A DNA stretch of 64,000 bases, from positions 256,001 to 320,000 of the forward strand of contig JABCTZ010000036.1 in the NCBI GenBank assembly GCA_018238155.1, in the 5' to 3' direction. The position numbers and the translations under genes were made by a program. This DNA comes from Candidatus Heimdallarchaeota archaeon (GTDB lineage: Archaea; Asgardarchaeota; Heimdallarchaeia; JABLTI01). Shown here piece by piece: positions 19,827 to 50,006 of this stretch; the stretch's first letter is position 1; every line of letters starts with the position of its first letter. The notes under the pieces are model-generated. The model saw nothing but the letters and a program-made list of their open reading frames with translations, was not told where the DNA came from and did no database searches.

Positions 19827-21446
19827 TTGAGGTCGAAAAATCTTGTATTAGTAACCTTTGTTCTTCTAATGCTCACACCAATCTTTGCAGTTAGTAGTAG
19901 TAGTGTACCAGATAAAACATACTCTACTCCCACAGATTGGAATTCGAGTGTAGGAGTTACTCCAGGGTTAACAATCAAATATACAATTAATGAGTTAGTT
20001 GCTCCATCAATGGATAATTTAACTATTCCAAATCTTGCCGGCAATTATCTCTATGTTAAAGTTATGTCCGTAGAAGATGATTATACATTCTCATCTGAAG
20101 AAGGTGTTCTCATTCGATATGGATTGGGTATTATTTTTAAAAAGGATGCGACATTCACTATTCGTGAAGGTTTTGCAGCAGCAGATTTTACTATACCAGC
20201 TGGTTCTGCAACTCCAGCAATGGTAATAGCTGGTGTTCCCCATTTTAATAATACTTTTGCACCCACATCTCCATTCTTCTTAAATAACGATTGGATTGAA
20301 CATAAAGATGTGTTAGATTCTCATGGGTTCAATGTTGTTGCTACTTCTTCTGAATTTGCAGTTTCCTTAAATAATGGAACTGGATCCATCTCAGCAAAGT
20401 GGCGAAAATCAGATGGTCTCTTGACTTCTATGGTTGTTGATGATATCTATGTAATGGGTATGAATTACTCAGGATTAAATTTGGATATCAGTCTATTATC
20501 GACAGAAGACAAAGGATTAGAGGTCGCTGTTGGTGATGAATTCATTTTGAAAAATGAATTTGCTTCTATGGAGATCACAGGTAGTGGTGATTTGTTTGAA
20601 ACAAATGAAACCCAATTCTCTTCTATGGAAGAAGAATATGAGTCAATTAAAGATGAGATAATGTTAAAATACACTGTTACAGAAATCGAAGGGTTATACT
20701 ACAAATGTGATGCTTCTGTTTTTGATTATGAAAAGAAAACTTTGGTTCCTTCTGAATTACCTGTTGTTTTCAATGGTTTTTTGGGTGCTATTGATGTTCA
20801 AGACCCACCTATGATTTATGATGCATTACTTGATCCACATATAACAAAAGGACCTGTTGCTTCAGCAACATATATTCCTGCAATTGCTCCAGTAATTACT
20901 CCTGATTTTGATATATACGGTGGATATTTAGTACTTGCAGACACATTAGTAGGTGTCTATTTGAATGATTTATTGGGCTTTTTACCAGCAATCTCTGAAT
21001 TGGAAGATCTTACTATAGATACTATCGAAGGAGACTTCTTCATGTCTGAGAAAAGAGGTTATGTCTACTTCCAAGAATCACTTAATGCTGAACTTTCATA
21101 CGATTATGAGATTTCTACTAGTCCTTTCTCTGCACAATTTACACTCGCATTTGATATTGGAGTTACTATTCAAGAAGAAGGATGGTTGGCATACCACGAA
21201 TCAGGTTTGGTCGCTGGAATGCGAATGAAATCAGATATTACTATAGAAGTAACTACAGATACATCTGTTTCAGGATTACCAACGGGTCAATTGACAATCC
21301 GTATTGACTTTAAGGTTGAAAATCCTGACTTTAATCCCCCAGATCCATTAGGTAGAGGTGTTATCCCAGGTTATACTTGGTTTGTAGTAATCCCAGCATT
21401 ACTCAGTCTTGCTGCAGTTGGTTTAATCTCTCGTAGAAGAAATTAG
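19827..21446 (+). CDS. Secreted cell-surface protein with PGF-CTERM-like sorting signal
   Basis: Signal peptide, acidic Ser/Thr-rich beta-type body, C-terminal IPGY-hydrophobic helix-RRRN. Confidence 0.7.
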   Translation: MRSKNLVLVTFVLLMLTPIFAVSSSSVPDKTYSTPTDWNSSVGVTPGLTIKYTINELVAPSMDNLTIPNLAGNYLYVKVMSVEDDYTFSSEEGVLIRYGLGIIFKKDATFTIREGFAAADFTIPAGSATPAMVIAGVPHFNNTFAPTSPFFLNNDWIEHKDVLDSHGFNVVATSSEFAVSLNNGTGSISAKWRKSDGLLTSMVVDDIYVMGMNYSGLNLDISLLSTEDKGLEVAVGDEFILKNEFASMEITGSGDLFETNETQFSSMEEEYESIKDEIMLKYTVTEIEGLYYKCDASVFDYEKKTLVPSELPVVFNGFLGAIDVQDPPMIYDALLDPHITKGPVASATYIPAIAPVITPDFDIYGGYLVLADTLVGVYLNDLLGFLPAISELEDLTIDTIEGDFFMSEKRGYVYFQESLNAELSYDYEISTSPFSAQFTLAFDIGVTIQEEGWLAYHESGLVAGMRMKSDITIEVTTDTSVSGLPTGQLTIRIDFKVENPDFNPPDPLGRGVIPGYTWFVVIPALLSLAAVGLISRRRN

Positions 21447-34030: not shown

Positions 34031-34570
34031 CTATAGTTTATCTAATTCAATAACAATCCATTTTATTGCTTCTTCTACACCTATTCCTTTAGTTGCTACA
34101 GTTGGTTGTATGTGCCAGCTGCGAGCACCCATTTTTTCCAGATTATCTAAATTACAAGCTTTGATAATTTCTTCTAATTGCATACATCCTTCAATATCTT
34201 GTTTATTTGCTATGACCAATAAGGGAACATCTGGAAATTGTGGATCAATCAGAACAGTCCAAAGCTCATTTTTTGCTTCTTCAATTCTTTCACGATCAGA
34301 TGAATCGATAACGAATATAATTGCACTTGCACCTCGCATTAATGTGCCCCATAAATTACGAAAATGCATTTGTCCTCCAAGATCAAAAACACTTAGATTG
34401 ACATTCTGTCTTTGTAAGACTTCTACATTGACACCTATCGTTGGAAGCGTTTCAATACTTTTCTCAAATCTAAGGAAATTTAACATGGTAGTTTTGCCAG
34501 CAGAATCGAGTCCTACAACTGCGATTTTAAATTGCTTTTTTTGTCGGAATAGTTTCTGTAAGAAGCTCAA
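34031..34570 (-). CDS. Arf-family small GTPase
   Basis: N-terminal amphipathic helix SFLQKLF, G1 GLDSAGKT, PTIG, DLGGQ, IFVIDSSDRERIEEA, NKQD, C-terminal G.EEAIKWI. Confidence 0.92.
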   Translation of the reverse strand: MSFLQKLFRQKKQFKIAVVGLDSAGKTTMLNFLRFEKSIETLPTIGVNVEVLQRQNVNLSVFDLGGQMHFRNLWGTLMRGASAIIFVIDSSDRERIEEAKNELWTVLIDPQFPDVPLLVIANKQDIEGCMQLEEIIKACNLDNLEKMGARSWHIQPTVATKGIGVEEAIKWIVIELDKL

Positions 34571-34743
34571 TGAAATCTTCCTCTATATTATGTCAATAAT
34601 ATTTTTTACTAATGATTACTTTTATTATGTTATAACAATTCTACTTTGTCATTCACTATTTCCAAATATAATTAATAAATCCATCTAAACCGCCATTCTT
34701 GAACGAATTTCTAAGAAAGGTGAAATATATTACCTCTAGCAAT

Positions 34744-35493
34744 TCAAATAAGATTTACTGTAATTTCTATTGTATCTAGTCTTTCATCGAACTTTACGAT
34801 ACCTTTGTTATCTAGATTTCTAAGTGCCTTCAAAATAATAACTGGAGGTGTTTTTGAAACTGATTTCTTCAGTTCATCTAAACCCATTGCTTGTTTGCGA
34901 TATGCAAGCGTTGAAAGTATATCTACTTCAGGTATATCGATACGAACTTCCTTTAAGAGGAAATCCAATATGGGACTTACTTGAACATTTTGTTCTTCTT
35001 CTTTTTTAATTTCATCTAATTGTTGTTGAATTTGTACAATTTGATTATTCATACGGTTTTGAGTAACCTCTTTTTCTGAGGTTTTAGCTTTAATGTTCTC
35101 TTTCAATAAAATAATTTGATTTTCTGTTGAGGAGAGTTCTGTTTTTAACTTGTTGAGATTCTTTTCTATTTGTTCCATTTCTAAGGTCAATTTATTACTC
35201 TTTTCTTGTTCTTCTGAAATATTTAATTTAGCACGTTCAGTTTGTTCATTTAATGTGTTAATATCACTTAGTAAACTCTTCTTTTCATTTTGAAGTTGTA
35301 TTTCATCTCGTTTATGATCATTGAGATTCTTTTCTAAATTTTGAGCATTTTGTTCTGCTTTTTCTAGATGAGAGAGTGCTTCTTTGATTTCTAGAAGAGT
35401 TGCTTCAATTTTTTGATGAATGTTTTGGTCCAATTTTTCTAAGCGTTCCTTTTCGGTTAAAATGCTTCTCTTTAAACTAACTAAGTCTGTCAT
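34744..35493 (-). CDS. Coiled-coil protein with C-terminal winged-helix domain
   Basis: ~170-aa heptad-rich region, then EVDILSTLAY...LDELKKSV...ILKALRNLDNKGIVKFD (wHTH pattern). Confidence 0.75.
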   Translation of the reverse strand: MTDLVSLKRSILTEKERLEKLDQNIHQKIEATLLEIKEALSHLEKAEQNAQNLEKNLNDHKRDEIQLQNEKKSLLSDINTLNEQTERAKLNISEEQEKSNKLTLEMEQIEKNLNKLKTELSSTENQIILLKENIKAKTSEKEVTQNRMNNQIVQIQQQLDEIKKEEEQNVQVSPILDFLLKEVRIDIPEVDILSTLAYRKQAMGLDELKKSVSKTPPVIILKALRNLDNKGIVKFDERLDTIEITVNLI

Positions 35494-35505
35494 TCAGTAT
35501 ACCTC

Positions 35506-36252
35506 CTAAAATTTTAAACTCCTATCAATGGTAATCGCACCTGATGATGAATCATATGTAATAAGTTTCCTTTTCATCAAACCTTCTAGTGTTTTTATTA
35601 TTAATTCATCTGAAATCCCGGTAACTTTTGAAATGGTACTTAAATCAGTATTTTTTCGACCTTCAAGTGAATTAATAATTTTTAATTCATTAAACTCAAC
35701 ATGATTTTTCTTTATGAGATATTCAAGAGCCATTCTTTCCCCTTTTATTCTTCTAAGGGTATCTTTTTTCGCTTCAATTTTCTTTTCAAACTCAAGGATC
35801 TTTTTTTCACTTGAGCTAACAATTTCTACAATATTATTAGATATTTTTTTGTTCTCTTCTGAAAAGTTTGAATATTCATCTTTAGCTCCTGCTTGCTTGT
35901 TTTTCGTTTCATTTAATTCTGAATTTATTTCTCTAAGTCGTGTTTCTAATTTAGCTCTATTGTCAACAAGTTCTGATAAATTTGATTGTGCTCCGGATAA
36001 TAGTGTTTCATTTGAACTCTTCTCATCTTTTAGTGTTGTAACCTCTCGAGTAAGAGCATCATTAGTTGATAAATAGTTAGAAATTTCATCTTTACGTTTC
36101 TTTTCAAAATTAATCAGATCCTCTATTGGATTTTTTAAATCTTCTAATCCTTTCTTAGTAACTTTAATTTTTTCTTCAAAATTACTGTTTAATTCTTGAA
36201 TTGTGAGCTCTGATTTTTTAATTGACGATTGTACTTCTGATATATCTGTCAT
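35506..36252 (-). CDS. Coiled-coil protein with C-terminal winged-helix domain (paralogue of neighbour)
   Basis: Heptad-rich region, then ELKIINSL...LSTISKVTGISDELIIKTLEGLMKRKLITYD. ATG 36252 follows GGAG. Confidence 0.75.
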   Translation of the reverse strand: MTDISEVQSSIKKSELTIQELNSNFEEKIKVTKKGLEDLKNPIEDLINFEKKRKDEISNYLSTNDALTREVTTLKDEKSSNETLLSGAQSNLSELVDNRAKLETRLREINSELNETKNKQAGAKDEYSNFSEENKKISNNIVEIVSSSEKKILEFEKKIEAKKDTLRRIKGERMALEYLIKKNHVEFNELKIINSLEGRKNTDLSTISKVTGISDELIIKTLEGLMKRKLITYDSSSGAITIDRSLKF

Positions 36253-36436
36253 AAATTGATTACACTCCACTTCTTTTATATACTTTTTTTCTGAAAAAGA
36301 TTTCGTTTCAATTAATACTTAGTTAATGATATTAATTAATTAGAACTATTCACTAATAAATTAATTTGGTGAAAGATTGAAGAAAAAAGTGAAAATTGAT
36401 TGAAATTTGTTATTTCAATCTTTTAGAGAGCTGCTT

Positions 36437-37822
36437 TTAATCCATATATACATGAGATGCAACTCGTTCTATTACTTCAAGCATTGCAGGTGTATGTTTT
36501 GCTCTAATTGCGTTAACAAAATCATCAGATGGCAAATTTAGTTTCTTAATTTTAGCCCAATCTTGAGAAATCTTCTCTATGAGCGAAACACGGTTAATCA
36601 ATAATGATACACATTCATTATGTTTCTGTTTGGTCATTGTTTGAATGATGTCATTTAAATAAATTGATGTCAGACCTTGGGAAACTTTCTTTTTATCCAT
36701 ATCTAGAATAACTTCATTTGAATAATAAGATAATAAATCTCGATTAACTCTGATAATATCTGCATCTCTAGGATGAATAAAATCTGCAGTATAATTTACT
36801 ATTCTAAGTTCTCTCTCAGGGGCAAAACATTGGATGGTATCAAGAATCATATTTAGTAAAACTTGATTTTTATCTGATTCTGGATCCAATACGATTAGTA
36901 GTAATTTTCTGCTAACTATTGCATCAAAAACTTGATCCATGCCTTTTTTAATTTGTTTAAGTAAGAATGGCATGTTTCCTTTGTCAGTATTTCTTTTTGT
37001 AACTTCTACCCCAAGAGTTCTTTGTGTATCTGGGGTTGAAGTTTGTGGTTGTTGTGTTGTAGTTGATGTTTGAATAGTAGTTTCTACAGGAGAGCTAACA
37101 GGTGCAGGTGCTGGAGTTGGTGTTGCACTTAAAGTAGCTGCTGCTGCAGGGGGAGGAGAATCTGAAAAAGATTTAACTGAATAATAAACTTTATTCCCCA
37201 TTTTTGTGGTGTAAAGAAAACCAGCATTCAATATTTCTTGGATTGTTGCTACAGCTTGTTGAGCTGAACTTTCAGTCATAGCTATGACTTCTTGAAAAGA
37301 TGCAATTTTAGCATCTAAAATTGAACGAGCTGTTTTTTGTAATCTTTGAGGAAGTTCCATAACACTAAGAGTATCTAATTCTCTTCTACTCCCAGACTTG
37401 GTCATTATTCTATTCTCAAAAGCACTTCGTAATTGGTCTAATTTAGCTACAAATCCCTGGAAAACTGAAACATCATCACCTTGCCAGTTCTCAACATAAT
37501 CTTGAGGGAAGATTGCATAGAAAAGTGTTTCAAGTTCAGGAAGTAAAATATCAAGTATTCCTTCTTCATTTGGATCAGAACTAACAACAAAAAATGCCGG
37601 ACCTACTTGCTTGTAAGTTAGTTTTAAATCACCAATCAATTCTTCATTTTGTTGTCCAATACTAACTTTGTTTAAAATGGAATCAATGATTGGTTGAAAA
37701 TCTCCCAAAGAATTTCCTTTTAATTGTGCTTGACCTGGTTCATAATTTCTGTAAACTAACGGAAAATTATTCTTTAAAATTAATACTCGTTTTATCAAAA
37801 CTTTCTTCTCCGAATAAAGCAA
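36437..37822 (-). CDS. Longin-like + wHTH + Pro/Thr linker + DENN/folliculin-like multidomain protein
   Basis: N-terminal longin-like pattern (VLIL..G/FPLVYR...FFVVSSD...F...F); wHTH (LPQRLQKTA...GFLYTTKMGNKVYY); PAPAP/TTTQQP linker; C-terminal DENN-like core. The start may be TTG 37798. Confidence 0.6.
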   Translation of the reverse strand: MLYSEKKVLIKRVLILKNNFPLVYRNYEPGQAQLKGNSLGDFQPIIDSILNKVSIGQQNEELIGDLKLTYKQVGPAFFVVSSDPNEEGILDILLPELETLFYAIFPQDYVENWQGDDVSVFQGFVAKLDQLRSAFENRIMTKSGSRRELDTLSVMELPQRLQKTARSILDAKIASFQEVIAMTESSAQQAVATIQEILNAGFLYTTKMGNKVYYSVKSFSDSPPPAAAATLSATPTPAPAPVSSPVETTIQTSTTTQQPQTSTPDTQRTLGVEVTKRNTDKGNMPFLLKQIKKGMDQVFDAIVSRKLLLIVLDPESDKNQVLLNMILDTIQCFAPERELRIVNYTADFIHPRDADIIRVNRDLLSYYSNEVILDMDKKKVSQGLTSIYLNDIIQTMTKQKHNECVSLLINRVSLIEKISQDWAKIKKLNLPSDDFVNAIRAKHTPAMLEVIERVASHVYMD

Positions 37823-38042: not shown

Positions 38043-38897
38043 ATGGCATTTAGTCGTAGTGTAAATGAAGAAAAAGCCTATATTTCGTTCAATTTAGATC
38101 CACGAACTAAACTCTTAATCTTAATGGTGGTATCTTTACTATCTGTTGTAATAAGTGATTTTTTCTTCTTGTTAATGCTTTTTGATTTAGTATTACTTTT
38201 TGCTATTTTATCTAAAGCAAATATAATAAAAATTTGGAAATATGTTAAGCCAACAATTTGGTTAATCATACCGGTTTTTCTTATTCAAACAATTTTTTCC
38301 TATGAAAAATATGGTCCACTAGTAATACTCCCTGAAACTTGGAATCTTATAGGTGGTTTCGTATTAATTAGTGTTGGCTCTCTTTTTTATGCCGGAAGTA
38401 TTTGTTTGAGAATACTCATTCTAGCAGTATCTTCAAGTCTGTTCAGTTTAACTACAGATTCAAATGATTTCTTACATGCTCTTAGAAAGATAGGTTTTCC
38501 ATATGAAATTGCTGTTGTTACTGGCTTAATTATTTATTTTCTACCCATGGTTATTTCTGAAACTACTTCTGTAAGAAATGCGCTAGAAACGAGAGGAGTG
38601 AGTATAAGAAAAGGTCGTTTTCTATCAAGATTAATGACATTTAGAATATTAATCACAGCAATTCTAATGAACTTTATTGAGAAATCAAAATTTCAAGCAA
38701 TGGCAATGGATTCTCGAGGATTTAATTCAAAGATAAGAAGAACAACTATTTGTGATTTGAAGCTCAAAGTAAATGATTATGTGATCATGATTGTAGTAGT
38801 AGCCATATTTGCAGGTATATTCTATTATTTTTGGGAGGAAATAAATTTCTTAGAGAATATATTTGACTATTTTGGAAATATCTTTAACCCAAACTAA
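38043..38897 (+). CDS. ecfT: ECF transporter transmembrane component T
   Basis: LDPRTKL and coupling motifs ALETRG and AMAMDSRGF. Confidence 0.9.
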   Translation: MAFSRSVNEEKAYISFNLDPRTKLLILMVVSLLSVVISDFFFLLMLFDLVLLFAILSKANIIKIWKYVKPTIWLIIPVFLIQTIFSYEKYGPLVILPETWNLIGGFVLISVGSLFYAGSICLRILILAVSSSLFSLTTDSNDFLHALRKIGFPYEIAVVTGLIIYFLPMVISETTSVRNALETRGVSIRKGRFLSRLMTFRILITAILMNFIEKSKFQAMAMDSRGFNSKIRRTTICDLKLKVNDYVIMIVVVAIFAGIFYYFWEEINFLENIFDYFGNIFNPN

Positions 38898-38911
38898 AAG
38901 GTGAACAAAAA

Positions 38912-39697
38912 ATGTTAACAAAATTTATTGGAATAAGTGGTGCAAAGAAATCTGGAAAAACAACCACTATCGAAAAACTCGTACCAAAACTAAATGATTT
39001 AGGCTATAAAATTGGAACAGTAAAAATCGCTTTCAAAGATGTAACTATTGATGTAAATAACGAGCATTTTGATGTTATACGACATCGCAAAGCTAAACCT
39101 GCAAAAACATTATTCAAATCATCAATCGATACAACAGTCTTCATAAATAACGATTTAACTCTGAGAGAATCCCTGAGAGGTTTTGGAAAAGATCTTGATA
39201 TTGTTCTTTTAGAAGGGTTCAAAGAAAACCTTGTTGGATTTCCTCAGATTGTTTTGCTAAATGAGAAAGGGCAAGAATCAAAAGTTGTTGATGAATATAC
39301 AGTAGCAATATCTTCTATCCCTGAATTCAGCTTGAAAAGTTCTGATATGAGATTTGTTTCATTTGATAACCTAACGGAAATTGTTGTAGAGAAGTCTATG
39401 CCTTTATTTCCAGAACTTGATTGTAAACACTGTGGGTATGATGACTGCAACTCTTTAATTAAGGACATTATCCTCGGGAAGAAAAAAGTATTAGATTGTT
39501 ATGTCTTAGAAACAGAAATATCCGATCTTCTTTTACAGGTAAATAATAAAATCATCCCTTGTAATCCATTTGTTCGCACAATTCTAAAAAAAGTCATCAT
39601 TGCTGTTTTACAATCAATAAAAATAGAGGAAGATGATTTTTCTGAAATAGACATCAAAATCTTGTTAGATAAGAAAGAAAGGGAGGATATGAAATAG
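38912..39697 (+). CDS. mobB: Molybdopterin-guanine dinucleotide biosynthesis protein B with Fe-S domain
   Basis: GAKKSGKTT P-loop, DIVLLEGFK, LDCKHCGYDDC...C and an archaeal-type C-tail (VNNKIIPCNPFV). Confidence 0.85.
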   Translation: MLTKFIGISGAKKSGKTTTIEKLVPKLNDLGYKIGTVKIAFKDVTIDVNNEHFDVIRHRKAKPAKTLFKSSIDTTVFINNDLTLRESLRGFGKDLDIVLLEGFKENLVGFPQIVLLNEKGQESKVVDEYTVAISSIPEFSLKSSDMRFVSFDNLTEIVVEKSMPLFPELDCKHCGYDDCNSLIKDIILGKKKVLDCYVLETEISDLLLQVNNKIIPCNPFVRTILKKVIIAVLQSIKIEEDDFSEIDIKILLDKKEREDMK

Positions 39698-40225
39698 ATG
39701 AAGAAAGGATCTATTATTCTCTTGGTTATAATATTTAATGTTGTATTGGGAGCTTCATTAGTAGCTGTCTATTTTACTACCTTCAATCATAATGAACCTA
39801 ATGAAGAAGCGTGGATTTTAACCATAAAAGGTGATGTAGTTCAAGAACTCAATCTAACAATTAAAGATTTGGAGGTTATGCCGAATATTACTCGAGATTA
39901 CATTGTGCAAGGAACACCAACAACTAATGATACGTATACTGGTGTATCGTTATATTATCTTGTTACAGAAGTTGCCAATATAACTTTAGCAGCAACAATT
40001 AAAGTAATTTCTATTGATTTATTTTCGAATTCACTTTCATTAGACGAAATAAATGCTACACGTGATATAATAATTGCCCACAAAATAAACGGTGATAATA
40101 TTACAAGTCATTCAGATGGTGGGGTCGGACCTTTACGTTTGATTATCCCACAAAAATTTGAAGGAGAATATAACGGTCAATATTGTGTTAAATTTGTTGT
40201 AGAAATAAAAATAACTTTGTTGTAA
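39698..40225 (+). CDS. Membrane-anchored protein with sulfite-oxidase-type molybdopterin-binding fold (Oxidored_molyb-like)
   Basis: N-terminal TM; W.LTI.G.V, YTGVSL, IIIAHKING, GPLRLIIP, VKFV. No Cys at the Mo-ligand position. Confidence 0.75.
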   Translation: MKKGSIILLVIIFNVVLGASLVAVYFTTFNHNEPNEEAWILTIKGDVVQELNLTIKDLEVMPNITRDYIVQGTPTTNDTYTGVSLYYLVTEVANITLAATIKVISIDLFSNSLSLDEINATRDIIIAHKINGDNITSHSDGGVGPLRLIIPQKFEGEYNGQYCVKFVVEIKITLL

Positions 40226-40230
40226 AATTA

Positions 40231-40851
40231 TTGGAGATACCAATATTGAAACGATTCAATACCTTTGATTTAATAATGATTGCTCTGATGGCTGCATTAG
40301 GTCTAGGTACAAAACAACTGGTTCGTCCATTGGTTTCTCTAATAACTATTCCCTTGTTAATTCCCGGAGGAGCTTTAGCAGGTGGATTCTATATGCTATG
40401 GTTAGTACTAACTAAAAGATTTGTACCGAAATTTGGTTCTGGAATATTTTTTGGCTTAGTTCAAGCATTAGTTGTTATGATTATGCCTTTTGGGTCACAT
40501 GGCATTTTCACATTCATTACCTATTCAATGCCTGGTTTAGCTGTAGATCTTATTGAAATAATCTTTAGAAAAATGAAATCAAAATGGCTGACATCTATGC
40601 TTGAAGGTGCTCTATCTAATTTAGTGGGAACAATTGCAGTTTCAAGTATAATATTTGAATTATCTGTTGAAGTTTTACTCTTCGTAGGTTTATTAGCACT
40701 CTTTTCTGGTAATATTGGCGGAATAACTGCTTATTTAATTATTTCTCAAATTAAAGATCCATTAATTCAAGAATCAATTATAGAGAACCCATCTTTACAA
40801 ATGGAAAAAGAGGATCTACCTCATAGTGAAGTAGTTACCGAAATGAGTTGA
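40231..40851 (+). CDS. ECF transporter S (substrate-binding) component
   Basis: ~6 TM helices, N-terminal FDLIMIALMAAL (AxxxA motif), PKFGSG. The start may be TTG 40246. Confidence 0.8.
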   Translation: MEIPILKRFNTFDLIMIALMAALGLGTKQLVRPLVSLITIPLLIPGGALAGGFYMLWLVLTKRFVPKFGSGIFFGLVQALVVMIMPFGSHGIFTFITYSMPGLAVDLIEIIFRKMKSKWLTSMLEGALSNLVGTIAVSSIIFELSVEVLLFVGLLALFSGNIGGITAYLIISQIKDPLIQESIIENPSLQMEKEDLPHSEVVTEMS

Positions 40852-42426
40852 TTATAGCTCATCAAAAACTAGTTTTCCATTGAAAATTGTTCCAAGAACT
40901 TTTGTTTCTTTAATTTTCATAGGATCAATGTTTAGAATATCCTGATCTAGAATTACAAAATCAGCTAGTTTTCCAATTTCAATTGAACCTTTAATTTTCT
41001 CTTCAAAAGATGAATAAGCAGCACCAAGTGTGAAATAGTATAATGCTTCTTCTGCAGATATTCTTATAGCATCTATTGGATGTGCGGCAACAGACCATAT
41101 ACCAAGCAATGGATCTAAAGGCATATTATCAGAACCAAAGCACAATTTCGTCTTTTCATCAATTATTTTTCTAAATCTATTCAATAATTTATATCTCTCT
41201 GGTCCCAATTTGGTTTCATATAATTGTCCGGGTTGTCCCCATCTTCCGGGGAAATTTGGTTGCATTGATAAAACTAATCCTAAATCATTTACCTTTTTCA
41301 ATTGTTCATCCAAAAGGTATTCAGCATGTTCAATTCGATGCCGACCCTTTCTGACAAGTTCTGGATTGTTTATTTCTTCAAATGCTTTCAATACAAAATC
41401 TATTGCTTCGTCACCAATTGCATGTATAGCTGTTTGCCAATCATTTTCAATTGCAGTTCGAACGGTTTCATGGAAAACTTTCTCTTCAATGTAGAATCCA
41501 CCTTTAGTCGTTGTATCGTCAAAATATGGCTCCTTAAGTGCAGCAGTTCTTGCACCTATAGAACCATCAGTAAATATTTTCACTCCACCAATACGAAGAA
41601 TATCATCTCCAAATCCTGTTTTAATACCTGTATTGATGTAATTGTTAAACCGTAACCGAGGAACATTCATGTACACTCGAATTGTAAGTTCATTTCTTTT
41701 CCAAGCAGAAATATATGATTTTACACTGCGAACAGAAAGATTGTCTGTAACAGAAGTAACTCCAAGTGAATTGGCAAATTCGCAAGCGGTTTTTACTGCT
41801 TCATCTAATTGTTCTTGTGGTTTCTTCAACTTAGGTGAGGTAGCAATTCTATCAATTAGTGTATCTGTTAAAATCCCTAAAGGTCTTTTTGTTACTGGAT
41901 CCAAATCTAAATCCGGATCATCTTTAGCAATTCCTAGTTCTTCTAAGGCAAGACTATTTACTGCAATTAAGTGTCCACACACTCTGCGAATATAACATGG
42001 ATTTTTTGGTGCAATAGCATCCAATTCATCAAGAGTGAGATATCTTTTGTCATCCCAATTACTTTCATCCCATCTTTCACCAAAAATCCAATTTCCAGAA
42101 GGAGTCTTACTTACTTTCAGTAAAATTTCTTCCAGAGCTTCTTTTGGAGACTTTACTTTATTCAGCATAACATCTTTGAATGTTGCACTTATTGCCAGTA
42201 TATGTGTGTGAGTATCGTTGAAACCTGGGCACAGAAATCTACCTTTCAAATCCAAAATTCGTTTCACTTTGGAAAATTTTTCTTTTAGACCTTTTGTAGA
42301 CCCAACGGCGAGTATCATGCCATTTTGTACTGCGATAGCTTCTGCTCGCGGTTGCTTAGAATTTTGAGTGACTATATTTCCATTAATTATTAAGAGATCT
42401 ATTTGAGAGAACAAATTTATTACCAA
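40852..42426 (-). CDS. Amidohydrolase 3 family protein (YtcJ-like)
   Basis: PGFNDTHTH, GVKIFTDGSIGARTA, HAIGD, RHRIEHAE, FGSD, KGSIEIGKLADFVIL. Confidence 0.92.
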   Translation of the reverse strand: MVINLFSQIDLLIINGNIVTQNSKQPRAEAIAVQNGMILAVGSTKGLKEKFSKVKRILDLKGRFLCPGFNDTHTHILAISATFKDVMLNKVKSPKEALEEILLKVSKTPSGNWIFGERWDESNWDDKRYLTLDELDAIAPKNPCYIRRVCGHLIAVNSLALEELGIAKDDPDLDLDPVTKRPLGILTDTLIDRIATSPKLKKPQEQLDEAVKTACEFANSLGVTSVTDNLSVRSVKSYISAWKRNELTIRVYMNVPRLRFNNYINTGIKTGFGDDILRIGGVKIFTDGSIGARTAALKEPYFDDTTTKGGFYIEEKVFHETVRTAIENDWQTAIHAIGDEAIDFVLKAFEEINNPELVRKGRHRIEHAEYLLDEQLKKVNDLGLVLSMQPNFPGRWGQPGQLYETKLGPERYKLLNRFRKIIDEKTKLCFGSDNMPLDPLLGIWSVAAHPIDAIRISAEEALYYFTLGAAYSSFEEKIKGSIEIGKLADFVILDQDILNIDPMKIKETKVLGTIFNGKLVFDEL

Positions 42427-44076: not shown

Positions 44077-44628
44077 TTGAAGTTTGGAGTAATAAATGTG
44101 AAACTATTAGCAAAAGTTGTCTTAGCGGGAGATGGAGGAGTAGGAAAAACTACATTAATTCATCGATACATCACAAATAGTTTTATCGATTCCACTAAAA
44201 TAACAATCGGTGCTGCTTTTCATACGCACGAAATAGAAACAGAAGAACATAGCGTTTTAGTTCAAATATGGGATTTAGGTGGTCAAGAGCAATTTAAACA
44301 GATGGGCATTTTTGACAGATATTTCAAAGGTACCTCAGTTTCAGTTATTATGTTTGATCTAACTCGATTAAGTACAATTGAAAGTATCTATGAATGGGCT
44401 GATTTGGCTTTAGGTGCAAGTAACACTAAGATAATTCTTGTAGGTGGAAAAAAAGATTTAGCAGGTGGTATTATCTTTAATGAAGAAACATTCCCTGAGT
44501 TGTTTGAAAAATACGATTTCATTTCTTATCATGAAACATCATCAGCAACTGGAGAAGGTGTTCCTGAAGTTTTTCAATCAATTGCACAAACTATAATTGA
44601 TTTAACATTGGAGAAAAAATCTCTATAA
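44077..44628 (+). CDS. Rab-like small GTPase
   Basis: GDGGVGKT, TIG, WDLGGQ, atypical G4 GGKKD, TSSATG. The start may be GTG 44098. Confidence 0.9.
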   Translation: MKFGVINVKLLAKVVLAGDGGVGKTTLIHRYITNSFIDSTKITIGAAFHTHEIETEEHSVLVQIWDLGGQEQFKQMGIFDRYFKGTSVSVIMFDLTRLSTIESIYEWADLALGASNTKIILVGGKKDLAGGIIFNEETFPELFEKYDFISYHETSSATGEGVPEVFQSIAQTIIDLTLEKKSL

Positions 44629-44774
44629 ATCGATTATTTATCAAAGTTATTCAATTTAACATTAAATAGTATTTTAAAGTATTAATTATTTATAAATACG
44701 ATAATTATATATTGTAGAAGAACTAGATTCAATCGAAAATTACCTAAGTAAGAACAATTTGGAGATTCAATAGA

Positions 44775-45554
44775 ATGCCTACAAGTCCAGTAATTCAAGA
44801 ATTGAAATCAATTATAAGCTCAATTATATCACAAGGAAAAACTGGTAACATGCGGGCAGTTGTACAATCTCTTCATGAATTTGAAAAAAGGACAAAACAC
44901 AAAAAGAATGATCCTGCAATTCAAGTATTATCAGCACAAGCTTATCGGCATTCTTTAGAACCATTTGGTGTTGCCAAGAAATTCAAAGATGTTGAACTGA
45001 TGATAATAAAAATAGAACACCTTCTGAAAGAAAATCCAACATCTGAGGATATGCAAGAGATTTTCAGTGAAGCATTGAATGCTGCGATTTATCATTACAT
45101 AATGAATGAAAAGGAAAAGGAAATTCATCAAACTTTGACACGCCTCGGTGAATTTGCAAATAAAAATCAAGTAAATCCATTCGTACAATTTAATTACGCA
45201 ATGTCTCTTTCTAGAGTGGCAGAATATTTTGTGTCAAAGGAAAATAAAGAAGTTGCTTACAATATCTTATGGGAAATTATTGGTATAGTAACGTTCTATC
45301 CTGGAAAAGAAATCTTAACACAAGTTAGCGAAGGATTATTACAATGTGTGAAAATTGCTGGTGGTAGACTAACTATGATTGAATTAGATGATTTAGCTAA
45401 TCGAATTGATGAATTCATAAATTTCACAAACGAATTTGGAATTCAACAAAAATTAACTACTTGTCAGGGACTAATTGTTCAATTTGTTGCTGGATTACGA
45501 ATGAGAAACGGATATAGTCCTGATGGGAAACTACAAAGAATCTACAAGAAATAG
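44775..45554 (+). CDS. Hypothetical all-alpha (solenoid-like) protein
   Basis: GGAG SD; repeated amphipathic helix pairs. Confidence 0.6.
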   Translation: MPTSPVIQELKSIISSIISQGKTGNMRAVVQSLHEFEKRTKHKKNDPAIQVLSAQAYRHSLEPFGVAKKFKDVELMIIKIEHLLKENPTSEDMQEIFSEALNAAIYHYIMNEKEKEIHQTLTRLGEFANKNQVNPFVQFNYAMSLSRVAEYFVSKENKEVAYNILWEIIGIVTFYPGKEILTQVSEGLLQCVKIAGGRLTMIELDDLANRIDEFINFTNEFGIQQKLTTCQGLIVQFVAGLRMRNGYSPDGKLQRIYKK

Positions 45555-45567
45555 TTTGATTATCAAT

Positions 45568-46389
45568 CTAGGCACTTTTTTCAAGCATTTGATGTAATAT
45601 TGATTCTAGATGGGCTATTTGAACAATACCTACTAAATGCCTTCCTCCTGCGATAATTGTCGGATAGGCAGTAACTCCATACGCATCTACTATTTGAGGG
45701 TCGGTTTCTGCATCAATCGTTTCAACCTCTAAAGCAAACTTTTTAGCAACTTTCTCAATGTGATTTAAAGCAACTTTTGACCATGCATCTCCTTTCTTAA
45801 CAAAGAAGAGAATCTTAGTAGATATTTTTTCAATAATTTTCGGTGAAATATCAGGGATAGGAATAACACCTGACACAATTTGTTGAATAATTAAATTAAA
45901 AGCAGCATCAACATTTGTATCTGTTTTTGCACTTGTGAAAATCAAATTAGCTTTTGCTGCGGGAGTATCACCTAGAGTTTTTAGATTAAAAGATAATGGG
46001 AGTTGCTTTGTTTGTGCTAAATCGAGTTTAGTTCCAACTAAAATTACCGGAACATCCTTTTGGTTATTAGCCGTTCTAAGATCTTCATACCAACCTGATA
46101 AATTGTTAAACGTTTCAGGTTTAGTTAAGTCATAAGTTAATAGAGCTCCAGATGCCCCTTGCAAGTATCGCAAACCAATTTTCCGTCTGCTCTTTTGTCC
46201 TGCGATATCCCAAATCATTAATTTTACTTCTGCATCCGGGTATTCAAAAGTTCTAACATAAAAATTTAAACCCAAAGTGGTCATATAATCTCTGTGAAAT
46301 CTATCGTAAATATATCTTTGAACTAAACTTGTTTTACCTACTCCCGGATCGCCAAGTAAAACGATTTTTCTTTGGTACAATTTTGTCAA
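45568..46389 (-). CDS. Rab-like small GTPase fused to a C-terminal thioredoxin-like domain
   Basis: GDPGVGKT, TLG, WDIAGQ, TKLD, TSAK; C-terminal ...IDAETDPQIVDAYGVTAYPTII...G. Confidence 0.85.
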   Translation of the reverse strand: MTKLYQRKIVLLGDPGVGKTSLVQRYIYDRFHRDYMTTLGLNFYVRTFEYPDAEVKLMIWDIAGQKSRRKIGLRYLQGASGALLTYDLTKPETFNNLSGWYEDLRTANNQKDVPVILVGTKLDLAQTKQLPLSFNLKTLGDTPAAKANLIFTSAKTDTNVDAAFNLIIQQIVSGVIPIPDISPKIIEKISTKILFFVKKGDAWSKVALNHIEKVAKKFALEVETIDAETDPQIVDAYGVTAYPTIIAGGRHLVGIVQIAHLESILHQMLEKSA

Positions 46390-47461: not shown

Positions 47462-48304
47462 CTATTTCATAAATAAATTCTTTATCCAGATCCAAGCTAT
47501 CAGAAATAATCTTCTGAGCTCAAATTGTTCTGGAATATTAATGACCATCCAAAATGGTAGAGATACATTGGAAATAACCAAATATAGAAACAAGGCAAAA
47601 AGACCAAGCGATAGCAAAATAACAATAATGTCCCACCATTTCAATTTAATAGAATAGAGAAATGTTCTATTCTTAGTTGCATTCCAACCTCGAGACTCAA
47701 TAGCTTCCGCTAGCTGCCAAGATCGTCTTAAAGCTGTAGCAAAAATTGGTATAAGAAGAGGAATCATATTTCTAACTCGTTTAAACAAATTACCACTATC
47801 AATTTGTAAACCACGAGACTTTTGAGCATCAATTATAATATTCGTTTCTTTTCCCAAAGTAGGGATGAATCTGTAAGCGGTGCTAATTGCCCAAGCAAAG
47901 GCATAAGGAAATCTGAATTTGATGAGTGTTTGCGAAATATCATCTGGGGAGACAGTTTGGAAATATAAGCCAAAGAATCCACTAAGTACAATCAATCTTA
48001 TTCCCAAAACAATTGCTTTTGTAGTTGGATGATCAACTTTTAAGAAAAGAGCATTTAAGACTACTATCAATAGAATAACTGGAGTTAAGAAGAGGAGCGA
48101 TTTTAACCATCGTTTCATGAAATTTCCAAAGAAAATCAAAGGAAGAAGAGCAACTAAAATTATACACAAAGGAATGATTTGATTAAGGTAAATGGCCAGG
48201 CAAGTAATCATAAAAATGAATAGTGTTTTTCCTCGAAGATCAACATAATGCAGAGGTGACTTTTGTTCAAGATAATTAAAATAATCAAGTATTTTTAAGC
48301 TCAT
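47462..48304 (-). CDS. ecfT: ECF transporter transmembrane component T
   Basis: SPLH.VDLRGK, AYRFIP, AQKSRG, AIESRGW. Confidence 0.92.
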   Translation of the reverse strand: MSLKILDYFNYLEQKSPLHYVDLRGKTLFIFMITCLAIYLNQIIPLCIILVALLPLIFFGNFMKRWLKSLLFLTPVILLIVVLNALFLKVDHPTTKAIVLGIRLIVLSGFFGLYFQTVSPDDISQTLIKFRFPYAFAWAISTAYRFIPTLGKETNIIIDAQKSRGLQIDSGNLFKRVRNMIPLLIPIFATALRRSWQLAEAIESRGWNATKNRTFLYSIKLKWWDIIVILLSLGLFALFLYLVISNVSLPFWMVINIPEQFELRRLFLIAWIWIKNLFMK

Positions 48305-48311
48305 ATCTTTG

Positions 48312-49160
48312 TCACCTACTTATTTTTTGCTGTTTTGAAAGCATAGTAAGTATATTTTCATATACTTCTTGTTCATTAATTGAGGTAGCAAAAGTGTCAT
48401 CAATTTGTTGAATTGAATAACACAAATCCAGTAATAGAGGGCTAACTAAATCAGTATCTTGAAGGAGAACTTTATCGGATAATATTTTGGTAGTCCCACC
48501 ATCAGCAATGACTTTTCCTTTTGAGAGTACAATAGCCCTTGGGATAAAATCTAAAATGAAATCCATATCATGAGAAACAACGACTACAGTAATTCCTTCT
48601 TTAGTTAGTTTTTTCAAGAATGAACCTAATTGTTTCTTCTGGCGATAATCCTGACCATAGGTTGGTTCATCCAGAACTAGAATTTGTTGGTTCATTGTTA
48701 AAACAGAAGCAATAGATACTAAACGCCTTTCTCCTCCTGATAATTCAAAAGGACTTCTCTCCAATAAATGTTCTATTTGAAAGATATCAATTAAACTTTT
48801 AATTGTAGCATCTCGAACTGATTCTTCTATCTTTAGATTTTTAGGCCCAAATTCAAGTTCTTTTATAACATTTTGAGCAAATAATTGATGATTAGGATTT
48901 TGAAAAGAGAAACCAATAATGGAAGCCATTTTTGATATTGGTTCTTTAACTATATCTAAACCATTTATTCTAACAATTCCTTCATTTGGTTTTAATAAAC
49001 CGTTGAAATGCTTTATTAGAGTAGTTTTTCCGGCACCATTTTTTCCTACTATTGCTACAAAATCTGCTTTGTTAATTTTAAATGTGATATCGTTTAGAAC
49101 GTACTCAGTTTTCGAATCATATTTGAAGGAAACATTCTCAAACTCTATCATCAATTTCAC
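48312..49160 (-). CDS. ecfA2: ECF transporter ATPase (EcfA2)
   Basis: GKNGAGKT, FQNPNHQLF, SPFELSGGE, LDEPTYGQD. Confidence 0.92.
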   Translation of the reverse strand: MKLMIEFENVSFKYDSKTEYVLNDITFKINKADFVAIVGKNGAGKTTLIKHFNGLLKPNEGIVRINGLDIVKEPISKMASIIGFSFQNPNHQLFAQNVIKELEFGPKNLKIEESVRDATIKSLIDIFQIEHLLERSPFELSGGERRLVSIASVLTMNQQILVLDEPTYGQDYRQKKQLGSFLKKLTKEGITVVVVSHDMDFILDFIPRAIVLSKGKVIADGGTTKILSDKVLLQDTDLVSPLLLDLCYSIQQIDDTFATSINEQEVYENILTMLSKQQKISR

Positions 49161-49163
49161 CAG

Positions 49164-50006
49164 TTATTTTAAAGTAGCAACAAACTCTTCGACAGTTAAT
49201 GGTATTGTGTTTGTTTTATCTTTCGATAAACCAATTTTTTCATCCAATTTTAGAAATAGGGAAGGGATTTTTGGTAGCATGCTTTCTGGAAACTCTTTAT
49301 TTTGAAATACTGTTTGAATATCCCCAAAAATCTTTAATTGTCCTTTTTCTAGGAAAGCTAATTTGTTAACAAAATTCAAGCATCTATCTAATCGATGCTC
49401 TGCAATTATTATTGTTTTTTTATGCTCAGTATTCAATTCATTGAGAAGATTAAGAATTCGCACCGCGCCCACTGGAGAAAGATGAGCAGTAATTTCATCA
49501 AGAACCAAAATTGGTGGGTTTAAAGCTAAAGCTGAAGCAATTGCAGTTAATTGTTGTTCTCCTCCTGAAATTGAATAGGGAGATTTATATCTAATTTCTT
49601 CTAAATTCAAAAGAGTAATTAATTCATCAACTCGAGACTTCATTTCATTCCTAGGAACACCAAAATTCTCCAAAGGAAAAGCAATTTCACGCTCAACTGT
49701 AAGGTTAGAAATCTGATTTTCAGGATTTTGAAATACAAAACCAACTTGCTTTGCTAAAAATGGTGTTTCACTTTCTAAAGTTGATTTGCCGAAAATTTCT
49801 ATAGAACCACCAAACCTACCTGCATGAAAATGGGGGATCAATCCATTCAAGCATTTCAATAAAGTTGATTTACCTGAGCCGCTAAATCCTGCTAATAGAA
49901 CAAATTCTCCTTCTATAACATCAAATGTAACACGCTTTAAAGCAAAAGAATCTGCATTGCGATACTTGAATGAAACGTTATCTATTTTTATTGCCGTTTC
50001 TACCAC
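49164..50006 (-). CDS. ecfA1: ECF transporter ATPase (EcfA1)
   Basis: GFSGSGKST, LNGLIPHF, FQNPENQ, ISGGEQQ, LDE, EHR. Confidence 0.92.
   Translation of the reverse strand: MVETAIKIDNVSFKYRNADSFALKRVTFDVIEGEFVLLAGFSGSGKSTLLKCLNGLIPHFHAGRFGGSIEIFGKSTLESETPFLAKQVGFVFQNPENQISNLTVEREIAFPLENFGVPRNEMKSRVDELITLLNLEEIRYKSPYSISGGEQQLTAIASALALNPPILVLDEITAHLSPVGAVRILNLLNELNTEHKKTIIIAEHRLDRCLNFVNKLAFLEKGQLKIFGDIQTVFQNKEFPESMLPKIPSLFLKLDEKIGLSKDKTNTIPLTVEEFVATLK

Follow-up and report, generated by a model that had tools for sequence, protein, structure and literature searches.

The molybdenum and tungsten cofactors (Moco and Wco) are regarded as too labile for trade, and every cell is assumed to synthesise its own supply; for haem, the Shr and Isd systems capture the cofactor at the cell surface. 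The only documented uptake of Moco found in our literature search is that of C. elegans, which takes up dietary mature Moco by a transporter that is unknown (PMC7849362, PMC9793310); according to the C. elegans paper, no uptake of exogenous Moco had been seen in another organism. As far as our search found, uptake of ready-made cofactor has not yet been shown for any bacterium or archaeon, and in the literature searched, limited mostly to open papers, an ECF importer for the molybdenum or tungsten cofactor is nowhere described.

PruR (A. tumefaciens Atu3496; PDB 7kos, 7kom, 7kp2 and 7rkb) is a small stand-alone exported protein with the SUOX fold and no metal-ligand Cys, which functions in DcpA-type signalling. 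It binds monapterin and neopterin, not Moco, for which its pocket is described as too short (PMC11194511). YkoEDC, a group I ECF transporter for thiamine/HMP (5edl), has a six-helix S component belonging to Pfam PF09819 and a dedicated T component, and its operon is led by a TPP riboswitch.

Here we describe a cluster of four genes in a Heimdall-type Asgard archaeon (Candidatus Heimdallarchaeota archaeon; genome 90.7% complete) that combines proteins related to both. We consider it likely that the cluster is part of a dedicated ECF importer of ready-made, metal-loaded pyranopterin cofactor, its binding and transport being inferred; in our best reading the substrate is mainly the tungsten cofactor, and the molybdenum cofactor in some variants. 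Like dietary uptake in C. elegans, such a system would use mature cofactor from other organisms, but there the transporter is unknown. Compared with Shr and Isd, the proposed system would capture a metallopterin and use an ECF-type step to cross the membrane.

Organization of the locus

The window analysed is a stretch of 64,000 nt (GCA_018238155.1, contig JABCTZ010000036.1, positions 256,001-320,000 of the forward strand), and positions are counted from its first letter. The four tightly packed, co-directional ORFs noted in a preliminary description are all present, as listed in Table 1, with gaps of 14, 0 and 5 nt if the longest ORFs are used. The last of these gaps holds only for the longest S-component ORF. 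Its homologs begin at the TTG, which has GGAG 9 nt upstream and is probably the true start, and the gap then becomes 20 nt.

Table 1. Coordinates of the cluster and of the second ECF module within the window
Feature	Position	Strand	Length	Remarks
EcfT (PF02361, E 1e-25)	38043..38897	+	284 aa	transmembrane coupling component, module-dedicated
MobB-like P-loop protein with C-terminal 4-Cys Fe-S domain	38912..39697	+	261 aa	PF03205 and PF04060, PRK14494-type
Membrane-anchored PruR-like pterin-fold domain	39698..40225	+	175 aa	PF00174, six sequons
ECF S component, uncharacterised PF09819 subfamily	40246..40851	+	201 aa	from TTG 40246; longest ORF from 40231
Separate general ecfA-ecfA'-ecfT module	47462..50006	-		Pfam

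The arrangement could have been unique to this genome, which would have counted against the original proposal. It is not: the same gene order occurs at the same chromosomal site in all eight related Asgard loci, one of which is truncated by a contig end, and the arrangement is therefore not due to chance. An RNA family scan found no known family in the leader within the window, and a promoter and terminator scan of the locus gave signals at chance level only. A query for sequencing runs that include the locus listed none.

The surface protein

The 175-residue protein matches PF00174 (Oxidored_molyb) with 44 bits against a cut-off of 24, and has a single strong hydrophobic helix at its N-terminus (19-residue hydropathy of 2.9 from residue 6). 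All six N-x-T sequons previously listed are present, at N52, N63, N77, N94, N119 and N134. N63 is found in 23 of 28 Asgard homologs and N94 in 27 of 28, and the mean number of sequons per homolog is 4.1 in Asgard archaea versus 0.5 in bacteria. The protein faces outward, and we infer that it is glycosylated.

A search of PDB sequences with the single sequence gave no match, and the relationship to PruR is visible only by fold search. The structure was predicted with high confidence (pLDDT 90.7), and the top fold matches are PruR 7kp2 (Z 17.3, rmsd 2.3) and 7kom. The Moco domain of the sulfite oxidase family (SorA, SoxC, YedY/MsrP) also shares the fold (Z 11-16) and, around the site where the pterin sits, the GP-x-R/L and K motifs, present here as the GPLRL and VK motifs noted earlier. 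However, the surface protein lacks the dimerisation and catalytic extensions and the partner cytochrome of that family, and the SorA ligand Cys aligns with a Cys-free stretch at Q71-G72, in agreement with the earlier reading that the metal ligand is missing.

In a sequence-profile alignment D107, F109 and C163 occupy the positions of PruR N102, Y104 and W160, so that the pocket Asn is replaced by Asp; the PW motif is absent. D107 is invariant, and position 109 is either F or Y. C163, the only Cys in the protein, stands in place of the pterin-stacking Trp of PruR and is kept in 27 of 28 Asgard homologs; at this position there is Cys in this Asgard group and Trp in 38 of 47 bacterial homologs. 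The closest fold is that of a proven non-catalytic pterin binder, which fits the suggestion of a non-catalytic surface binder, although binding itself is inferred.

Like PruR, the protein is a small exported SUOX fold without the metal-ligand Cys. It differs from PruR in its membrane anchor and in its association with a transporter, as a separate partner or as a fusion. No DcpA/DTB regulator lies beside it, and its neighbours are the ECF and MobB genes. The Moco-fold gene is a neighbour of the S-component gene in 77 of 80 loci, and in other Asgard families the S component is fused to a Moco-fold domain. Co-folding of the surface protein with the S component gave a score of 0.27 against a mark of 0.32, and we count it neither for nor against an interaction.

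The S and T components and the supply of ATPases

The S component matches PF09819 with 51.5 bits and is predicted to form six helices. The best Foldseek matches are S components, all weak (E 0.01), with YkoE 5edl at the top (TM 0.63, 14% identity, E 0.01), and a profile search of PDB sequences gave no match. A T component is found in 67 of the 80 S-component loci. The genome carries only two EcfT genes, and the one in the cluster is the top match in the genome to the T proteins linked to the bacterial operons. It is placed in a clade of its own, to which the general T at 47462 does not belong; the branches in this tree are long, and we claim no direction of transfer.

Genes for the EcfA/A' ATPases are present in 63 of 72 bacterial loci and missing from the cluster in this Asgard group, so that here, unlike in YkoEDC, the ATPases lie outside it. 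There are two candidate sources: the module within the window (48312-50006), and an orphan ecfA-ecfA' pair on contig C39 (170931-172591), which adjoins a second mobB. A metagenome scan with the EcfA of this pair found a single close relative, whose contig of 2 kb does not reach far enough to reveal the adjacent genes.

MobB, tungsten enzymes and genes for cofactor biosynthesis

The P-loop domain of the MobB-like protein matches PF03205 with 71.5 bits (cut-off 26.6). It reaches 73.1 against a cut-off of 76.2 for TIGR00176, and as a PRK14494-type protein it remains below the NCBIfam cut-offs. mobB is a same-strand neighbour of the S-component gene in 54 of 80 loci. MobB had been proposed to channel the cofactor to dinucleotide attachment. 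We find no support for this step, because we found no genuine member of the bis-PGD or XDH enzyme families in the genome; the customers are therefore the AORs. We infer instead that MobB-FeS is a cytoplasmic receiver or chaperone for the imported cofactor. The only MobA-like match in the genome is a below-cut-off domain fused to an HD domain, and the only match to PF00384 is a truncated NuoG-like subunit rather than a bis-PGD enzyme.

The genome contains five genes for AOR-family tungsten enzymes, with EYE/FET and DxxGxD-type motifs. Profile searches of the genome found no MoeA_N, MoaE, Mob_synth_C or MoaC, and tblastn found no match to TupA, TupB, MoaB/MogA, MoeA, MOSC or MoaC queries. Hence none of moaA, moaB, moaC, moaE, moeA and tupA was found in this 90.7% complete genome, which is the combination of missing biosynthesis and encoded enzymes that the preliminary description had suggested looking for. 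The few candidates were rejected: the sole MoCF_biosynth match is CinA-like, the PF12849 matches have no similarity to TupA queries, and the tblastn match to MoaA is short and generic radical-SAM. Both moaC and moeA are absent from all nine genomes of this Asgard group, each of which carries 3-9 AORs. We note that the gene absences rest mostly on incomplete assemblies.

Distribution across genomes

Among 181 Asgard genomes the S component occurs in 47 and moaC in 79, with no overlap. The exclusion holds within one family of 42 genomes (22 with S versus 13 with moaC) and also inside single genera; in another family, the lone moaC-positive genome has a tup-moa-moe island instead of the S system. 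Neither marker was found in 55 of the 181 genomes at the cut-off used. Of five such genomes that were checked, one has no Moco-fold gene and four have one, two of these in divergent ECF operons and two beside other ABC genes.

In Cloacimonadota the S component is found in 73 of 76 genomes that have AOR and lack moaC, versus 2 of 8 that have both. In Clostridia all 17 S carriers have AOR (background 39/300) and 16 of them keep moaC, while the S system is present in only one of four genomes with AOR and without moaC. MoeA is absent in 29 of 50 carriers. Related genomes are not independent, and Fisher values therefore overstate the association. The linkage of this S family to Mo/W genes is conserved across phyla, as the initial proposal required, and on the evidence of gene content the distribution mirrors loss of cofactor biosynthesis.

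Bacterial operons

The Moco/Wco riboswitch RF01055 is found upstream in 17 of 18 bacterial loci, and no TPP riboswitch was matched upstream of any of the 18. In 16 of the 18, RF01055 lacks P3, the type tied to the tungsten cofactor (PMC2408646). The bacterial operons thus resemble that of YkoEDC in having at their head a riboswitch for the likely substrate. The single P3-containing riboswitch leads an S-binder-mobA operon that adjoins formate dehydrogenase; this genome has neither moaC nor AOR. Some bacterial operons adjoin AOR or a moa-tup-moe operon. In many relatives the system also includes a phosphoesterase at the cell surface and a kinase in the cytoplasm, suggesting dephosphorylation outside the cell and re-phosphorylation inside. 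The host cluster has neither, and elsewhere in the host genome we found neither a fused phosphoesterase nor an orthologue of the kinase from these operons (best match E 1e-6).

Proposed function and alternatives

The original idea is that a cofactor-dependent archaeon uses an ECF system with a non-catalytic surface binder to import a Mo/W-pterin cofactor. Every genomic test suggested with it gave support: biosynthesis genes were not found alongside five AORs, the linkage crosses phyla, the fold matches PruR, and the bacterial operons carry the riboswitch. Binding and transport are inferred. We propose that the anchored PruR-like domain would bind the pterin end of cofactor that other cells, or enzymes from such cells, have released in anoxic sediment, and would shield it. 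It would then hand it to the S component, which would topple through the membrane upon ATP hydrolysis by EcfT and an EcfA/A' pair encoded elsewhere. MobB-FeS would receive the cofactor and assist in the assembly of W-bis-pterin or in its delivery to the five enzymes of the AOR family. Since none of MoaE, MoaB/MogA, MoeA and TupA was found in this genome, the imported molecule must come with its metal and dithiolene already in place. Several points argue against the importer: the PruR pocket is described as too short for Moco, Cys replaces the stacking Trp, most clostridial carriers keep moaC, 55 of the Asgard genomes showed neither marker, free cofactor is labile (PMC9793310), the gene absences come mostly from incomplete assemblies, and there are no binding or transport data.

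The alternative that survives best, which we regard as unlikely, is import of a metal-free precursor (cPMP or molybdopterin) or of a dephosphorylated or oxidised breakdown product, to be finished by unrecognised enzymes; MobB-FeS, for example, could be an insertase or reductase of a non-canonical kind. Small pterins fit well into pockets of the PruR type, the phosphoesterase and kinase show that many relatives process the substrate chemically, and in M. extorquens MobB is required for tungsten incorporation (PMC13197769). However, the M. extorquens protein works with MoeA1, which is missing here together with the other late enzymes listed above and TupA, and the carriers without MoeA are in the majority.

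Import of another pterin or vitamin (folate, methanopterin, or thiamine precursors as for YkoE), with the tungsten link due to a shared anaerobic lifestyle or ancestry, could draw on the inclusion of YkoE in PF09819, its rank as best fold match, and the ligands of PruR. We think this very improbable: identity to YkoE is low with no PDB sequence match, the leader is a Mo/W riboswitch and not TPP, THF or B12, S and moaC exclude each other inside single families and genera, and surface pterin-fold binders and mobB or mobA accompany the operon. Uptake of tungstate or molybdate, or an extracytoplasmic redox system with catalytic Moco-fold proteins, is in our view just as improbable, even though RF01055-type riboswitches also control oxyanion transporters, riboswitch-led S. 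wolfei genes were first read as sulfite oxidases (PMC2408646), a conserved Cys lies near the pocket and genes for FMN-binding, ApbE and ferredoxin proteins occur in some bacterial loci, since an oxyanion is useless without the pterin pathway, not found here, and the domain is only about 140 residues long, has no Cys as canonical ligand, and occurs in fusions with S components and with S-layer scaffolds.

Returning to import of finished cofactor, it seems probable to us that auxotrophy for the tungsten cofactor is shared by many Asgard archaea and by most Cloacimonadota, which harvest intact W-bis-pyranopterin from neighbours by means of PruR-like domains and ECF import. If so, Wco and Moco would be cross-fed vitamins in anoxic communities, exchanged for the moa/moe pathway even inside single genera. 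This would account for the ability of AOR-rich Asgard archaea and Cloacimonadota to do without cofactor biosynthesis, and would point to a missing growth factor for their culture. A defined importer would make cofactor transport directly testable in culturable Clostridia, and the binders could serve to stabilise or deliver cofactor in tungsten-enzyme production and in research on Moco deficiency.

Surface proteins in Firmicutes

Some Firmicute loci encode S-layer-anchored proteins of 1200-2100 residues with Moco-fold domains. One of these that was scanned also contains Shr-like haemoglobin-interacting domains.

Gene cluster and its chromosomal site

The four tightly packed, co-directional ORFs of the preliminary description were recovered, with gaps of 14, 0 and 5 nt. 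Judging from its homologs, the S gene probably begins at TTG 40246 rather than at the start of the longest ORF. The nearest relatives bear the label Ca. Heimdallarchaeota, and eight related Asgard loci have an identical gene order at an identical chromosomal site. In three of these (L007, L010 and L011) a second Moco-fold gene directly precedes ecfT, and the apparent orthologue of that gene is a second membrane-anchored paralogue on contig C29 of the genome holding the window (G000).

Features of the cluster, its surroundings and related loci (C29 and C39, other contigs of G000; L-numbers, compared loci)
Feature	Location	Strand	Match or remark
EcfT	38043-38897	+	PF02361
MobB domain with C-terminal four-Cys Fe-S domain (MobB-FeS)	38912-39697	+	PF03205, PF04060
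175-aa Moco-fold protein (binder)	39698-40225	+	Oxidored_molyb, weak yet above cut-off
S component	40231-40851	+	PF09819
Amidohydrolase_3 (YtcJ-like)	40852-42426	-	
Flanking Asgard block	34031-37822, 44077-46389		
Complete ECF module	47462-50006		
Second Moco-fold paralogue	C29, about 19900-20590 (L002)		
Orphan ecfA-ecfA′ pair	C39:170931-173099 (L141)		
MobA-like NTP-transferase with HD domain, 671 aa	C39:66310-68325 (L124:1462-3477)		similar-length matches in three relatives
Moco-fold gene with ABC importer, family f2	L108:5617-12274, L109:566-7232		
Divergent S homolog and operon	L128:5468-7711		

The flanking block, in identical order in L005–L011, encodes an Arf-like GTPase, two coiled-coil proteins and a 461-aa protein without Pfam matches, and two Ras/Rab-like GTPases. 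The Amidohydrolase_3 gene lies tail to tail with the S gene in all related Asgard loci; nothing indicates that it is part of the importer system. L006 (DATKZI010000004.1) is fully syntenic with the Heimdall-type locus though titled Bathyarchaeia, probably a mislabel, and P0012 and P0045, labelled Zixibacteria, may also be mislabelled.

The cluster has no ATPase gene. G000 has two EcfT genes, the cluster's own and that of the complete module. The orphan ecfA-ecfA′ pair has no T gene nearby; it abuts a second, short mobB, with which it converges. Among the genome's proteins, the first subunit of the pair matches bacterial operon-linked EcfA best. This pair is the likelier, though unproven, ATPase partner.

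Cofactor need and biosynthesis genes

G000 (90.7% complete) encodes five proteins of the AOR family of tungsten enzymes. No MoeA_N, MoaE, Mob_synth_C or MoaC domain was found in this assembly, and tblastn with archaeal and bacterial TupA, TupB, MoaB/MogA, MoeA, MOSC and MoaC gave no match; as far as this assembly shows, this is the combination that the preliminary description proposed to check for, W/Mo enzymes without the synthetic genes. The sole MoCF_biosynth match is CinA-like and was rejected as a cofactor gene. In the other eight genomes of this Asgard group moaC and moeA were likewise not found, with 3–9 AORs each.

The earlier proposal that MobB channels the cofactor to dinucleotide attachment is not supported here. 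The cofactor of AORs is a W-bis-pterin without nucleotides, searches of G000 gave no XDH-family gene, the sole PF00384 match is a truncated NuoG-like subunit rather than a bis-PGD enzyme, and the only MobA-like domain is below cut-off and fused to an HD domain; the dinucleotide step therefore has no customer in this genome. Tungsten incorporation in M. extorquens requires MobB, together with MoeA1 (PMC13197769), and we infer that MobB in G000 more likely receives or delivers cofactor.

Distribution across genomes

AOR was present in all 50 other carrier genomes tested, of which 26 lack moaC and 29 moeA; one of them, a Cloacimonadales genome in a single chromosome, has one AOR gene and three of the XDH family. 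Among 181 Asgard genomes, 47 have an S homolog and 79 have moaC, with no overlap, and the exclusion holds inside family f10 (22 against 13 of 42 genomes) and inside genera g42 and g52. The p-values of the Asgard and Cloacimonadota tests overstate the significance, since related genomes do not count as independent and most of the assemblies have gaps in coverage. AOR is nearly universal in Asgard (172/181), and its co-occurrence is therefore uninformative there. The sole moaC-positive genome of family f16 has no S gene and carries a tup-moaB-moeA-MOSC-moaA-moaC island. At the cut-off used, neither marker was found in 55 of the 181 genomes, which also speaks against strict replacement of synthesis by import; of five examined further, two have divergent ECF operons with a binder (one with a PF09819 S component and kinase), two have a binder next to other ABC genes, and one gave no binder match.

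In Cloacimonadota (121 genomes) the S gene occurs in 73/76 genomes with AOR but without moaC, in 2/8 with both, and in 13/37 without AOR. In Clostridia (300 genomes) AOR is present in 17/17 strong S carriers, compared with 39/300 overall; however, moaC is retained in 16 of the 17, and just one of four genomes with AOR and no moaC has the system. These counts speak against strict replacement of synthesis by import, and we therefore read the clostridial system as salvage that runs beside synthesis, the usual situation for vitamin importers.

Riboswitch RF01055 lies just upstream of the operon, on the coding strand, in 17 of 18 bacterial loci. Sixteen copies lack stem P3, a form tied to tungsten cofactor, and such RNAs precede supposed sulphite oxidase genes in S. 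wolfei (PMC2408646), whose products, we infer, may be binders of the importer type. The one copy with P3 stands in front of a minimal operon of S, binder and mobA that adjoins a formate dehydrogenase, in a genome with no moaC and no AOR; riboswitch type, accessory gene and customer thus change together. No RF01055-type RNA was found in the window; the leader of the cluster matches no known RNA family.

S component and gene neighbourhoods

The S model has six helices, and its top fold matches are ECF S components. The first, YkoE, shares the fold but only 14% identity, with a weak E-value in the fold search. One conserved S peptide matched 333 stretches in GTDB genomes and, as judged from sequence, the protein is a member of a distinct PF09819 subfamily. 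Linkage of this subfamily to Moco-fold genes, for which a neighbourhood survey had been proposed, was borne out: in its best 80 loci, counting same-strand genes, S is accompanied by a Moco-fold gene 77 times, by EcfT 67 times and by MobB 54 times.

A Moco-fold/phosphodiesterase-superfamily surface protein and an APH/Kdo-like kinase each occur in 35 of the 80. Further genes are present in part of the loci: a TonB-dependent receptor in Cloacimonadota and unclassified bacteria, and in Firmicutes S-layer-anchored proteins of 1200–2100 aa with several Moco-fold domains. In other Asgard families a Moco-fold domain is joined to the C terminus of S, in the order tandem Moco-fold surface protein, S fusion, ECF A-A′, T. 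In family f10 the surface protein instead joins a calcineurin-like phosphoesterase to the Moco fold, and the APH/Kdo-like kinase again lies next to it. Because two unrelated phosphoesterase folds are recruited beside one kinase, this suggests, by inference, a phosphorylated substrate, as pyranopterin is.

The binder and the proposed route

The structure model of the binder (pLDDT 90.7) is closest to PruR (7kp2, Z 17.3, rmsd 2.3 over 133 residues; Foldseek ranks 7kom first), followed by sulfite oxidase family enzymes. PruR, a SUOX-fold protein that is exported and non-catalytic, has been shown to bind pterins, which are held between Tyr and Trp with an Asn hydrogen bond; the pocket is said to be too short to take Moco (PMC11194511). 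By profile alignment, the binder has D107 in place of Asn (invariant in 64/64 alignment rows), F109 in place of Tyr (Tyr in most rows) and C163 in place of Trp (Cys in 27/28 Asgard, Trp in 38/47 bacterial homologs). The binder likely binds pterin; that it holds the entire cofactor is an inference resting on context and not on the pocket.

It carries a single N-terminal anchor helix and six sequons. Two of the sequons are conserved in most homologs from Asgard, whose average is 4.1 compared with 0.5 in bacterial homologs. These features fit the surface glycoprotein originally envisaged, although its glycosylation and outward-facing position are predicted from sequence features alone. The canonical metal-ligand Cys is missing, in agreement with the claim that the protein is non-catalytic.

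We propose that the binder would capture metal-loaded pyranopterin and pass it to the S component, that the ECF transporter would import it, and that MobB-FeS would route it to the AORs. We consider this the most likely route, but it has no biochemical demonstration: the genes, fold, linkage, AORs and the synthesis genes not found support the core idea of a cofactor importer, whereas the dinucleotide step is not supported and both binding and transport are only inferred. Import of a metal-free precursor or breakdown product is conceivable, if unlikely. We attach very little weight to import of another pterin or a vitamin, and equally little to oxyanion uptake or surface redox catalysis. For import of metal-loaded pyranopterin, the transport machinery (ECF) is of a known kind; no description of the substrate class, the PruR-like capture domain or prokaryotic cofactor auxotrophy was found in searchable papers, and exogenous Moco uptake is stated as not observed outside C. 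elegans (PMC9793310).

Variant loci

In family f2, where moaC is rare and AOR universal, a Moco-fold gene and the genes of a classical ABC importer (for a solute-binding protein, a 1034–1066-aa permease and an ATPase) are arranged head to head; together they may provide a second route, not of ECF type, for the identical cofactor. At L022, L053 and L058 (also L015 and L038) the bacterial versions include genes for FMN-binding, 4Fe-4S membrane, ApbE and NusG-II proteins, a hint that surface binders receive electrons from a flavinylated source. The divergent S homolog of L128 has no binder; its operon also encodes a ModE-like regulator together with a methyltransferase and an NTPase. The methyltransferase-like/NTPase pair is found again next to L043, L049 and L070.
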